Shown: piece by piece, positions 25,480-58,511 of the stretch | Numbering within the stretch: the stretch's first letter is position 1 | Layout: the number at the start of each line of letters is the position of its first letter | From: Mytilus trossulus | Lineage: Eukaryota | Assembly: GCF_036588685.1 (NCBI RefSeq) | Contig: NC_086376.1 | Location: 83,265,014-83,329,013, forward strand | Direction: 5' to 3' | Length of the DNA stretch: 64,000 bases | Position numbers and translations under genes: made by a program | The notes under the pieces: model-generated | Seen by the model: only the letters and a program-made list of their open reading frames with translations | Database searches by the model: none | Told to the model about the DNA's origin: nothing

Positions 25480-25593
25480 TCATTTGTACAAATCTGTCAG
25501 TCTCTTTCCTTCTCTCAAGCCAGTCAGCAATGCTCCATGTGTAGTTGAGTAGTGAGTTGGATGGGTTGCCTCCCCTGCAAAGCATACTTGAGG
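25480..25593 (-). CDS. Polyamine oxidase (SMOX/PAOX-like), terminal coding exon 5 with stop ([37 protein letters not shown])
   Basis: Matches the SMOX C-terminus ..[32 protein letters not shown]. Acceptor ctttcag| (plus 25594-25600); TGA stop at plus 25480-25482. 114 nt = 37 codons + stop. This ORF is under 60 aa, so it is absent from the supplied ORF track; I found it by manual translation. Confidence 0.75.
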
Positions 25594-27350
25594 CTGAAAG
25601 TAAATAAATAAAAATACATTGTACATATTAGTCCCTAAATAAAAGGTGACTATTACCATTGTTCTGGTTTAGGACTCTTTTAGTTCTGATGTTCATAATG
25701 TATTATTTAGTTTGCTTCCATCATTTTTTATCTTCAGCATTATTGATGAAAGTTATTTAAGACACATGTATCATACTTGTGCATTGCTTATCTGTAATGT
25801 ACAATATTGTAAGAATACTGGTAAACATGGAATGAATGAAAACGGCAAATAATCCTAGTATTTACATTTAAAATGAATTAAAACTTTTGATTCAGACTGT
25901 ATTCCATAAAGTTTTAAATAAACAATTGTAATGGTAATGAAATATTTTGAGGACTGTCCTGATTCATATTTTGTTGCATATTTCTATGGCCAGTTGGCAA
26001 TGTTTAAAATAGAAATGGTTAAGGGCTTTTCAACCTTGATTTGATTGTTATTAATTGTGCATGTGGGAAATAAATAACTGACAATCAATAAATTGATAAA
26101 ATTTATAAATAACAGATAAAACAGATTATATCATGTTGTTTATCTAAAATATTCTCATTTTTATTGTTATTGACATTTTTTTGTTGATAAATTTAAGTTG
26201 CAGTCATACACTACCATCTGGTGATGTTTATTTGAACTCTAAGCTTCATGTGATACAAATAAACCTATTCTCATCACAAGACAAAAAGATTTTGAGAACA
26301 TTTGTCAATATTTCCTATAAAACTTGCACTTTCTGTTTTTACTGGTGTTAAAGAAGCACTGATACCCCTAATTGTTTTTTTACTTTTAAAGCTTAAAGCA
26401 TGGCTTTCAGATACTGTGAACCAGTCTTTCATGTAAATGTGTAGGACATCTTTTATTGCTTCAAGTTGACCTTCATTCAACCTAAACCATATAAATGAAC
26501 TAACAGTATAAAAATCTGCTCATCAAAAGTTCAATGTCTTAAAATGTTAAAAAAAACCATCTCATTAAATTATATTCCCAAACTACTTTTATTTTAGCAG
26601 AACACTGAGAACAGATAATCTAAACGCAATCAAAAGAAAGTTCAAAGTATGTGCCTATATATCATGTAGTATTTCTTTTAATCAATATCATCCACCTAAA
26701 CAAAAACTTTATCAGACTTAAATAATATAACCTGGTCAATGTACATAAAAAATCTACAATGGATTATTCTTTTGAAAGTAGGTCAAGACATGAATTACAG
26801 GTAACTAAAGTAAATACTAATTTGTCAATATAAAGGTTTGTTTATGATATGTTGACAAGGAGTCAGTTGGTGCTCAGATAAATTTTCCCTTTGGATTCAG
26901 TTTTTACTAGTCTAAACCCATTTGATGATTACAACATTTGTGTTATGTCATAGGAATATATTTATAAGGCATTACTCAACTTATTAAATAAAGCTATACA
27001 AGTGGTCTAGGGCACCAGACACAGTCCCAGATTATGTTGCCAGGATGTCAAGGCAGCAAGGGTTCCAATGAGGGAAAACAAAACTTTTCTGATGCAAATT
27101 TGCAGATCTAACATTGTTTCTCTTCTTTATTTGCAGTCCAGACCAAACTTCCCAAGTTCCATTTCAGTAGACCTACATTTTTATACATTTTTGTTTGATA
27201 TTTTGTTTAATTATTCTCATGCAAGAGGCTCTGTGTTGAAGGCTGTACTTGGATGGAGAGTTATCTCAATGGCACTCATACCACATTCTATATACAACAA
27301 TCAATAGCTGATTAATGTTTCTCATGCAGTTTCATAATAATCTCCCTCAC

Positions 27351-27468
27351 CTTATCAGATTCTGATCCCATTAAGGGTTCTGACAGAGCATCTACGTCTA
27401 CGGCCTGAGCTCCTACTTTCAGGAAACTATATGATCCTCTAGTGTAAGGGTTATTTCCCCATCTGGTC
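27351..27468 (-). CDS. Polyamine oxidase (SMOX/PAOX-like), coding exon 4 (118 nt; RTRWGNNPYTRGSYSFLKVGAQAVDVDALSEPLMGSESDK)
   Basis: WG.NPY.RGSYS motif, the conserved C-terminal substrate/FAD region of the PAO family. Strong acceptor ctttctttttcag| (plus 27469-27471); donor AAG|GTGAGG (plus 27345-27350); phase-0 end. Confidence 0.8.
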
Positions 27469-28088
27469 CTGAAAAAGAAAGGTAAGAATATATACAAATG
27501 ACCATTTATATACAATAGTTTTTACTGTTTAAAAAATAATGTAGTCTCTCTCTGAAGTCAAGTGTTCAGGTAGGGATTTCGAATCTCCAGTCCTATTTCA
27601 GAGATATGTGATCAACCAAAATAAGAGTTATATTCTACATAAAAAATATGTATAACATCCACAGGCTTTTTCAATTAATCACATTCAAGGTCCAAAAAAC
27701 GAACTTATGAGAAATTTTGGAAATGCTTCAGAATATTCTTTTTATCTTTTTCATTAATTACCCTCATTTCACTAACCTACTTTATAGTCTATTTTTGTAA
27801 AGACAATAGCTATCATGTCAAAACCCATTATGCAACAGAAATCAATATATGGACCTGATTAATAAGTCATTTACTATGGTATATAATACATAAAGTCTGT
27901 TACTATTCCATGTAAATTAATTGGTCAGACACTGTCCAATAAATCAACTTTCTAAAGAGAAAATAAATCAGTCATAGATACAATGCACCATAGAAAATAA
28001 TAGCAAATGTCACAAATTCATTACCCTTACACATGCAGACACAAAAACCTCTTTTAATATGGCCCCTTCAATATTTTCTGGACTTTAA

Positions 28089-28338
28089 CCCGTTTCTCCA
28101 TGGAATTTTTTTGCTCACATGTATTAATGCATTGTGAAAATAAATATTTCATCAATGAAATTCCAGTCAGATGTTCTCATGAATATCCTTTTTATATGAT
28201 ATATAAACTTTATTAAGGCTGATACAGATTTTTCGTAGGTAAGACAAGATGTTTAAACTGAGGCACTACACAGGCAACAAAAGGCTTCATTATGAAATAA
28301 AGGGGTGGCCTCAAAAGGCATCATTATGGAGGCAAGGG
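28089..28338. mobile_element. Second copy of the piggyBac-like MITE (TTAA|CCCGTTTCTCCATGG ... ATGGAGGCAAGGG|TTAT)
   Basis: Collinear with the 47278-47575 copy over its whole length (ttcatcaa..ctttattaag..actgagg.actacacagg). The 5' TSD TTAA is intact; the 3' TSD has degraded to TTAT. Confidence 0.55.
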
Positions 28339-56639: not shown

Positions 56640-56815
56640 ATGTTGGGGCCTTTTACAGACATGACAGTCAACTACATATATATACATGTATAAAAGTATG
56701 GGTTTACTAATTTTTGTAACATGACACAAGGCTATATGTTGACCTATAACTTTTCCATTTCATTTGGACTCTGTCAGATAGACAATTGGCAATCATACCA
56801 CATGCATTTCCTTGA
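56640..56815 (+). mobile_element. SINE-like repeat, related subfamily, partial
   Basis: ggggccttttacagacatgac..ctatatgttgacctataac..gacaattggcaatcataccacatgc. Confidence 0.5.
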
Positions 56816-57059
56816 TTATACATGTAACATTGAGTTGGTCACATTTTTTAATGATAGGTACAATTTTCTATTGTACTAATAGATACTGCATTGTGCAAAG
56901 TAGTGACATCTCATCATGATGTCTTGTGGTATACTACTGACATGTGTATGGTACAATGCATAGCTTGTACTAGTTTGTTTCTGGTTCAATAGGTTCAAAA
57001 ACAACGAAAAGACATAGGTTACCATTTACAAATGCAATACTCAGTAGACCTGGCTTAAA

Positions 57060-57290
57060 AAATAAGTGTTACATATTTGTTTTTCGTTTATTTTTTGTAC
57101 AATTAATGCCGTTAGTTTTCTCATTTGAATTGTTTTACATTGCGTTTCGGGGCCTTCTATAGCTGACTATGCGGTATGGGCTTTGCTCATTGTTGAAGGC
57201 CATACAGTGACTTACAGTTGTTAATTTCTCTTAGTGAGAGTTGCCTTATTAGCAATCTTACCACATCTTCTTTTTTAATTATACTTAACT
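57060..57290 (+). mobile_element. SINE-like repeat, related subfamily
   Basis: Near-identical to the 49040 copy (gttacatatttgtttttcgttt..ctatagctgactatgcggtatgggctttgctcattgttgaaggccatacagtgac..ccacatcttc). Confidence 0.7.
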
Positions 57291-58360
57291 AGTAATATAT
57301 TTATTAAATTTTGTAAAATGAACAGGGGCGGATCCAGCTGGCGATGATTTAGAGACCGTTTAACTTAAGCGTCAAACTACTTTTAACGCCGTTTCCATTC
57401 ACATTGTTAACGTCATCATATCTTCTGTTAACGTTGTGCTTTTTTTATGTACATGTATCATGTTACTATATTGAGTTGAGATTATACGATCAAACAAACC
57501 AGACTTTGTTTTACTGCCTGTCCAGACTTTTAGTTAACCCATCCGTCATACCAGCCATTTTAAAAAGGGGGGTTCCTAACCAAGGACAAATTGGGGGTTC
57601 CAATTACATGTCCCCATTCAAATGCAGTGATCGTCCAAAAAATGGGGGGTTCCCACCCCTGGAACCCCCCTCTGGATCCGCGCCTGATGAAACAAGAGTT
57701 TTGTACACGTCAGAACCTGAAGAGAAGAAATCCAATTCCATGCAATTAGGCCCATTAAGCATTATATTATCATACATTGCAAAGCAAAGGGTGTACATGT
57801 ATGTAGTTTTGTTAATTATGCTAATTATTGATCCACAAAAAGGCCCAATGGTTCAACCTCTATTTCTTCAAATAATACCCAAATCATACAGAGAATGAAT
57901 ATAATTTTGACATAGTTTGAAAAAATTATAAAGTTGAGAAAGAGGTCCACATTCACATTTTGAAATTAAAAAATACATGTGTCCCCCAAACATTTTCTTG
58001 ATAACAAATGATTTCCTTGTGAAGCAGTATTTCCCTGTAGTAAAACTGGTTCTATTTATATATAGAAATTTGATTGGTTTGTTGCCAGACGTTCTGTACA
58101 TATGTCCTATTTTGACCTTCACACAATCATTCACAAAAATCTAAAAATGTGTCATCGAGTTCAGGCAATGTAATTTCATAAAATACAAAGACATGACCAA
58201 TCGCTAATAATAATGACAATTGAATACACTTTTAAATTATTATATTGTATTTTTACTATGATACTGGGTTACTTTCTTTTTGCTAAGGTGGCAATGTATC
58301 CAAACGAGAACTATCACGAAATGAAACCATGGCATACATTTGTACACTGGGATAACTTAC

Positions 58361-58511
58361 CAAGATTGACGGTGTATATTCTACCGCCTGTTCTATTTGA
58401 TGCTTCAAGTATAACGTAATCTTTAAATCCATTGTTAGCGAGATAATCTCCTAAGGCTATCCCAGAGATCCCTCCACCGATGATCACAATTTTGGGCTTT
58501 GTTTCACCCAT
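58361..58511 (-). CDS. Polyamine oxidase (SMOX/PAOX-like flavin amine oxidase), coding exon 1 with start codon; encodes MGETKPKIVIIGGGISGIALGDYLANNGFKDYVILEASNRTGGRIYTVNL + split codon
   Basis: ATG at 58509-58511 on the minus strand. GxGxxG dinucleotide-binding (FAD Rossmann) motif IVIIGGGISG ... ILEA..R.GGRI typical of the amine oxidase N-terminus. Exon ends with a consensus donor G|GTAAGT (minus strand; plus-strand ACTTAC at 58355-58360). 151 nt, phase-1 end, joins exon 2 in frame. The ORF track's M at 58520 is a TTG, not an ATG. Confidence 0.75.

Follow-up and report, generated by a model that had tools for sequence, protein, structure and literature searches.

The Mytilus trossulus genome assembly (GCF_036588685.1) contains, on contig NC_086376.1, a stretch of 64,000 nt (positions 83,265,014 to 83,329,013 of the forward strand; hereafter the window, with coordinates counted from its first base) that holds only one long open reading frame (ORF). 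This raises the question of whether that frame is part of a complete split gene, and what the encoded protein might do. An initial annotation, made from the letters alone, had proposed a five-exon polyamine oxidase (PAO) gene of the SMOX/PAOX family on the minus strand. Our analysis indicates that the window almost certainly carries an intact, expressed-type Mytilus gene for a SMOX/PAOX-family PAO dependent on flavin adenine dinucleotide (FAD), in a single copy and with a gene span of ~33.7 kb. The window is AT-rich throughout (~31% G+C), which, along with the single long ORF, is consistent with a eukaryotic genome whose introns are long.

Gene structure

We reconstructed the gene by boundary reading and assembly, and the five joined exons (Table 1) gave a 1428-nt coding sequence (CDS) translating to 475 aa, as against the approximate 475 aa first proposed. 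The exons were confirmed to the base at the places originally given, and the two outer coordinates of that proposal correspond exactly to the last base of the stop codon (25480) and the A of the ATG (58511). This ATG is the earliest in-frame one downstream of a stop, and exon 1 closes with the donor G|GTAAGT. Every junction is of the GT-AG type, and the predicted phases of 1/2, 1/2, 2/1 and 0/0 were recovered as 1, 1, 2 and 0. The donors of introns 1-4 read GTAAGT, GTGAGT, GTAACA and GTGAGG, while all acceptors take the form (T)nCAG or (T)nTAG, i.e., an AG behind a pyrimidine-rich tract.

The conserved motifs are divided among the exons in an orderly manner. Exon 1 encodes the FAD dinucleotide-binding motif (IIGGGISG...LEASNRTGGR). 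Exon 2 encodes Trp63 and His65 within GANWIHG, the catalytic Lys304 within GFGIVDK, and the region of the substrate domain where the Glu186/Ser188 pocket lies. Exon 3 contributes WLSGKEALYMESL...PQPRKVIR, and exon 4 contributes TRWGNNPYTRGSYSF..., including Tyr412. The motifs on which the proposal had been built (GGGISG, GANWIHG, RWGNNPYTRGSYS and a C-terminal motif) were all found. They lie in stop-free minus-strand segments at 58317-58523 (Rossmann motif), 54114-55082 (GANWIHG), 27315-27521 (RWGNNPYTRGSYS) and 25483-25668 (C-terminal motif), and WLSGKEALYMESL sits in an ORF at 48719-48955. Two exons had been said to fall below a 60-aa ORF cutoff; in our listing (ATG, GTG or TTG starts, >=60 aa) exons 1, 3 and 4 fall in ORFs of 68, 78 and 67 aa and exon 5 alone is missed, so this count depends on which ORF track is used.

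Support for the splice model

We aligned assembled transcripts of related mussels to the window. The mRNA contig L006 (2040 nt, intronless, run SRR34257100), whose reading frame gives the annotated M. galloprovincialis protein, matched the window by blastn at 97-99% in five blocks (58695-58361, 55073-54157, 48862-48722, 27472-27351 and 25595-25038), where offsets of 1-10 nt at the block edges are the usual BLAST overhang into similar intron bases. Its 5' block (L006 1-335 = window 58695-58361) is 98.8% identical and its 3' block (L006 1497-2037 = window 25595-25038) 90.5% identical. The best database homologue of the predicted protein (475 aa, 89% identity, 100% coverage) is encoded on the 1.7-kb intronless contigs L001 and L002, which are assembled mRNAs from a related mytilid. 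In blastn, L001 likewise gave five blocks, with 3' ends at 58361, 54157, 48722 and 27351 and a 5' block (L001 3-395 = window 58753-58361) of 77.5% identity. Both the congener and the more distant mytilid transcript are therefore divided at the predicted junctions. The 5' untranslated region (UTR) joins exon 1 without an intron and reaches at least 58695 by L006 and 58753 by L001, and the 3' UTR reaches ~25038 by the congener mRNA, so that the transcript exceeds at both ends the interval originally given.

The intron positions are shared well beyond Mytilus. For Lottia gigantea (locus L003) and Mya arenaria (L004), we traced the annotated orthologous proteins back to the genomic DNA that encodes them, accepting only GT..AG junctions that gave an exact translation. 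Each of the two genes proved to be split into five coding exons, and in a protein alignment their introns occupied columns 63, 373, 416 and 456, as in the window, with the same phases. We also compared the window CDS with that of L001 (both 1428 nt, gapless) by the Nei-Gojobori method. The nonsynonymous rate (dN) was 0.063 and the synonymous rate (dS) 0.77, and the resulting dN/dS of 0.08 indicates purifying selection. Differences at the three codon positions numbered 42, 22 and 150, and dN/dS was <=0.32 in each exon alone. Three independent checks (congener mRNA, orthologue introns and dN/dS) thus agree with the junctions, which are confirmed.

A tblastn search of the window with 120 homologues placed no coding matches away from the five exons and revealed no alternative or missed coding exons, the sole exception being a 23-aa match in intron 2 (54096-54028), just past exon 2, that is an artefact of a read-through ORF. 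The same search found no homologue-matching coding sequence inside intron 3. Beyond this one copy, neither that search nor blastn of L001 revealed any paralogue or duplicate of the gene in the window. The gene model came through every check that the initial annotation had suggested.

Table 1. Features of the polyamine oxidase gene in the window
Feature	Position	Strand	Description
5' UTR	58512..58753	minus	congener mRNA to 58695, more distant mytilid transcript to 58753
Coding exon 1	58511-58361	minus	151 nt, aa 1-51
Intron 1	55073..58360	minus	3288 nt, GT..AG, phase 1
Coding exon 2	55072-54158	minus	915 nt, aa 51-356
Intron 2	48853..54157	minus	5305 nt, GT..AG, phase 1
Coding exon 3	48852-48723	minus	130 nt, aa 356-399
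Intron 3	27469..48722	minus	21254 nt, GT..AG, phase 2
Coding exon 4	27468-27351	minus	118 nt, aa 399-438
Intron 4	25594..27350	minus	1757 nt, GT..AG, phase 0
Exon 5, coding part	25593-25480	minus	114 nt including the TGA stop, aa 439-475
3' UTR	25038..25479	minus	inferred from congener mRNA; ~440 nt, end approximate

Domain content and family assignment

A FAD amine-oxidase domain is clearly present in the joined translation. The Pfam family Amino_oxidase (PF01593) matched residues 15-466 with 226.1 bits (gathering cutoff 19.8, E = 1.3e-66), covering profile positions 1-438 of 443, and NAD_binding_8, an NAD(P)-binding Rossmann family, matched with E = 1.2e-12. The GxGxxG-type motif IIGGGISG lies at residues 10-17, and LEASNRTGGR, with its acidic residue and GGR, at residues 35-44. 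Among all PDB chains, the best match was human SMOX (7oxl; query 5-475, 348 bits, E = 5e-103) and the second was mouse PAOX (5lae; query 5-474, 286 bits, E = 4e-84), both aligning end to end with small gaps only. Far behind came LSD1, whose alignment fell into two pieces (E = 3e-36). Yeast Fms1 and maize PAO reached E = 1e-26 and MAO-B, over its N-terminus only, E = 6e-12; the monoamine oxidase (MAO) and L-amino-acid oxidase (LAAO) families matched the N-terminal Rossmann segment only (E = 1e-8 to 1e-12). By these alignments, the predicted protein is a full-length flavin amine oxidase of the SMOX/PAOX family, and both the family membership and the collinearity with the vertebrate enzymes that had been proposed hold.

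Identity with annotated Mytilus proteins

The 475-aa translation is string-identical over all 475 residues to the RefSeq protein XP_063435007.1 ("spermine oxidase-like [Mytilus trossulus]"), so the gene is already annotated. The reconstruction in the initial annotation is right and identical to the existing RefSeq model. A chance origin of the model is excluded by the Pfam match (E = 1.3e-66), the PDB match (E = 5e-103) and the exact RefSeq match. Proteins of the same length, without insertions or deletions, are predicted in M. galloprovincialis (XP_076104235.1; 3 differences, 99.4% identity), M. edulis (XP_071169127.1/CAG2243792.1; 7 differences, 98.5%), M. californianus (XP_052101576.1; 11 differences, 97.7%) and M. 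coruscus (CAC5417903.1; 12 differences, 97.5%). The window is also collinear with a genomic locus of M. galloprovincialis (L005), with 80-95% nucleotide identity across introns and flanks. The gene is ordinary and already known, with automatic annotation predicting the same protein. In the literature, spermine oxidase of Mytilus surfaced only in passing, as an entry in transcriptome lists, and no functional work on the Mytilus enzyme was found.

Databases also hold a second cluster of Mytilus proteins named "spermine oxidase" (including VDI18548.1 from M. galloprovincialis) that is not encoded in the window and is 88% identical to exon 2. This similarity suggests that Mytilus genomes contain, outside the window, either a paralogue or a haplotype that has diverged.

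Active site and predicted function

The active site of mouse SMO comprises Trp80, His82, Gln200, Glu224, Lys367, Trp427, Tyr482, Ser527 and Thr528; the specificity pocket is formed by Glu216 and Ser218, which are Leu and Ala in APAO, and the APAO equivalent of the catalytic Lys367 is Lys315 (PMC3517346). We mapped these residues through the PDB alignments with a constant offset of 20 between native SMO numbering and the 7oxl construct, an offset that reproduces Trp80, His82, Gln200, Glu216, Ser218 and Glu224. On this basis, Trp63, His65 and Gln170 of the mussel protein align to Trp80, His82 and Gln200; Glu186, Ser188 and Lys304 to Glu216, Ser218 and Lys367; and Tyr412, Ser454 and Thr455 to Tyr482, Ser527 and Thr528. 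Trp357, in the VGWLSG motif, is probably the equivalent of SMO Trp427. A placement of Glu216/Ser218 on a "CESSS" stretch was tried and rejected, as Gln200 would not fit.

At the pocket, the mussel sequence SEVSLS stands opposite DEVSLS in SMOX and DLVALA in mouse PAOX. The protein ends in ...RLTDLYK and thus lacks a tripeptide of the type 1 peroxisomal targeting signal (PTS1), whose consensus is (S/A/C)(K/R/H)(L/M). Because the Glu/Ser pocket is that of vertebrate SMOX and the -DLYK end is not PTS1-like, we infer that the protein is most likely a cytosolic, spermine-preferring FAD-dependent oxidase.

SMOX and PAOX bind FAD non-covalently. Their substrates are spermine or N1-acetylated polyamines, in which they oxidise the C-N bond on the exo side of N4, releasing a shorter polyamine, 3-aminopropanal or 3-acetamidopropanal, and H2O2. 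By analogy with this chemistry, the mussel enzyme would bind FAD non-covalently through its N-terminal Rossmann motif. With spermine, and possibly with N1-acetylated polyamines too, it would oxidise the secondary amine on the exo side of N4, and the expected products are spermidine, 3-aminopropanal (or 3-acetamidopropanal) and H2O2. Such a reaction would constitute a step of the polyamine back-conversion pathway.

Alternative interpretations

Several observations weigh against a functional gene or against its assignment to spermine. The transcript evidence comes from congeners and not from M. trossulus itself. At the 3' end inferred from congener mRNA (~25040-25060, minus strand), no canonical AATAAA is present in the window, which there reads AAAAAGAAACC; L006 carries AATAAA ~20 nt before its end, the next AATAAA/ATTAAA on the minus strand of the window is at 24946, and species may thus differ in their poly(A) site. 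Within the active site, the position of SMO Glu224 is occupied by Ser194, the sole mapped mismatch. Finally, the PAOs of invertebrates diverge below the SMO/APAO duplication of vertebrates, and their specificity may be broad (PMC3517346), so that strict membership of the SMOX clade is not expected and "spermine oxidase" is an automatic name and not a demonstrated specificity.

This phylogeny leads to the alternative that fares best, namely that the protein is an ancestral PAO of broad specificity, acting on free and acetylated polyamines alike, and as a pre-duplication orthologue belongs to neither the SMOX nor the PAOX subfamily. We regard this as possible, if on the unlikely side. It accords with the published placement of all invertebrate PAOs below the split, for which broad specificity was proposed, and with the full-length match to both vertebrate enzymes, but the acidic/Ser pocket tied to spermine specificity in the same study (PMC3517346) is kept here and in scallop, limpet and clam (Glu/Asp plus Ser). 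The retention of this Glu/Asp-x-Ser pocket in mussel, scallop, limpet and clam, i.e., two aligned residues in four mollusc sequences, also prompts a rather doubtful proposal about the history of the family: the selective oxidation of spermine, with no acetylation beforehand, may be older than the SMOX/PAOX duplication of vertebrates, in which case PAOX would be the derived specialist and a broad-specificity enzyme would not be the ancestor of both.

It is improbable that the gene encodes a PAOX-type enzyme, that is, a peroxisomal oxidase favouring N1-acetylspermine/N1-acetylspermidine over free spermine. Mouse PAOX does align end to end (E = 4e-84), and "peroxisomal N(1)-acetyl-spermine/spermidine oxidase" is the name that automatic annotation gives to some of the orthologues in invertebrates. 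However, SMOX scores 62 bits above PAOX, the pocket residues Glu186/Ser188 (SEVSLS) follow SMOX (MDEVSLS) and not the Leu/Ala of PAOX (MDLVALA), and the -LYK end lies outside the PTS1 consensus, as do the ends of the Mizuhopecten, Lottia and Mya orthologues.

Membership in another flavin amine oxidase family (an LSD1/KDM1-type histone demethylase, a monoamine oxidase or an L-amino-acid oxidase) has a negligible chance of being correct: the Pfam Amino_oxidase fold is shared and these families do appear lower among the matches, but LSD1 aligns in two pieces with E = 3e-36 at best, MAO and LAAO are limited to the Rossmann segment, and the 475-aa protein has no SWIRM or tower insertion and is collinear with SMOX and PAOX. 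A non-functional (pseudogene) copy or an accidental joining of ORF fragments, to which the very long introns and the degenerate counterpart of the congener poly(A) signal might point, is effectively refuted and hardly conceivable, given an intact CDS with conserved catalytic residues, a dN/dS of 0.08 overall and <=0.32 in every exon, a constant length of 475 aa in five Mytilus species and a known spliced mRNA contig from a congener.

Repeats and surroundings

The introns had been described as large, up to 21 kb, and filled with repeats. The size was borne out by the 21254 nt of intron 3, whereas the repeat content was only partly substantiated, by a minisatellite, a G30 run, palindromic repeats and a few dispersed repeat copies within and around the gene. 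The minisatellite (intron 3, 41263-42983) consists of a 61-bp unit repeated 28.2 times head to tail over 1.7 kb, and its copies are 99% identical to one another. In the M. galloprovincialis locus L005, megablast found no counterpart across window positions 41013-43455, so the array may be confined to one species or have expanded recently. Also in intron 3, a perfect G30 run (33439-33468) adjoins palindromic tandem repeats (33802-34130) based on TTCATGAA, a block that includes an 80-nt inverted repeat of 86% complementarity.

Downstream of the gene, we detected a 333-nt inverted repeat (95% complementary) with arms at 5753-6085 and 19678-20010, 13.6 kb apart, and extra 110-nt copies at 18812-18921 and 19853-19962; together these are probably transposable-element copies or terminal repeats. 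A 238-aa ORF at 63271-63987 (minus strand) has a FRYLDDIL-type motif and no Pfam match, and weakly resembles (E = 5e-6) a 123-aa ORF at 17078-17449 (plus strand); the two are probably remnants of one retroelement-like family. Overlapping ORFs of 140 and 103 aa at 3584-4250 (plus strand), rich in Lys/Glu coiled coil and with a sub-threshold CCDC144C match, could represent an exon from an adjacent gene. Pfam searches of ten other long ORFs of the window returned nothing beyond the sub-threshold coiled-coil match near 3.6-4.2 kb, and the window gave no matches in Rfam (gathering thresholds) or in a tRNA scan.

Significance

The gene codes for a housekeeping enzyme of polyamine catabolism, whose protein is in RefSeq for M. 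trossulus and is predicted in four sister species as well, and its exon structure is common across molluscs. The main value of the present case lies in the exact rebuilding of a split eukaryotic gene from raw sequence alone. It has a marginal relevance for the question of the substrate specificity of pre-duplication invertebrate PAOs.

Comparison with known systems

The mussel protein shares with human SMOX (7oxl/7oy0) the FAD-binding motif, the Trp/His of GA(N/T)WIHG, the residues corresponding to Gln200, Glu216/Ser218, Lys367, Tyr482 and Ser527/Thr528, and the absence of a PTS1. Native SMOX is longer (~555 aa) owing to vertebrate-specific loop insertions, which the 475-aa mussel protein lacks. 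The enzymes further differ at the Glu224 position, which is Ser in the mussel protein, and in descent, as the mussel protein predates the SMOX/PAOX duplication by the published phylogeny (PMC3517346).

With mouse PAOX (5lae), the mussel protein has in common full-length collinearity, the catalytic Lys, the Trp/His pair, and the Tyr and Ser/Thr residues, whereas the pocket is Leu/Ala in PAOX and Glu/Ser in the mussel. The two proteins also part at the C-terminus: PAOX bears a PTS1, and the mussel protein ends in -DLYK.

The systems compared also include molluscan orthologues, which are 73% (Mizuhopecten yessoensis), 66% (Lottia gigantea) and 58% (Mya arenaria) identical to the mussel protein. 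In these orthologues the pocket consists of Glu or Asp, then Val, then Ser, and all three likewise lack a PTS1. The M. arenaria protein differs in having Arg at the catalytic Lys position (GFGIVDR vs GFGIVDK), where all other aligned sequences have Lys. The Lottia and Mya genes depart from the one in the window in their N-terminal and intron lengths, with gene spans of 13.8 kb in Lottia and 54.8 kb in Mya, but their exons 2-4 are nearly equal in size to those of the window (909-915, 127-130 and 115-118 nt).

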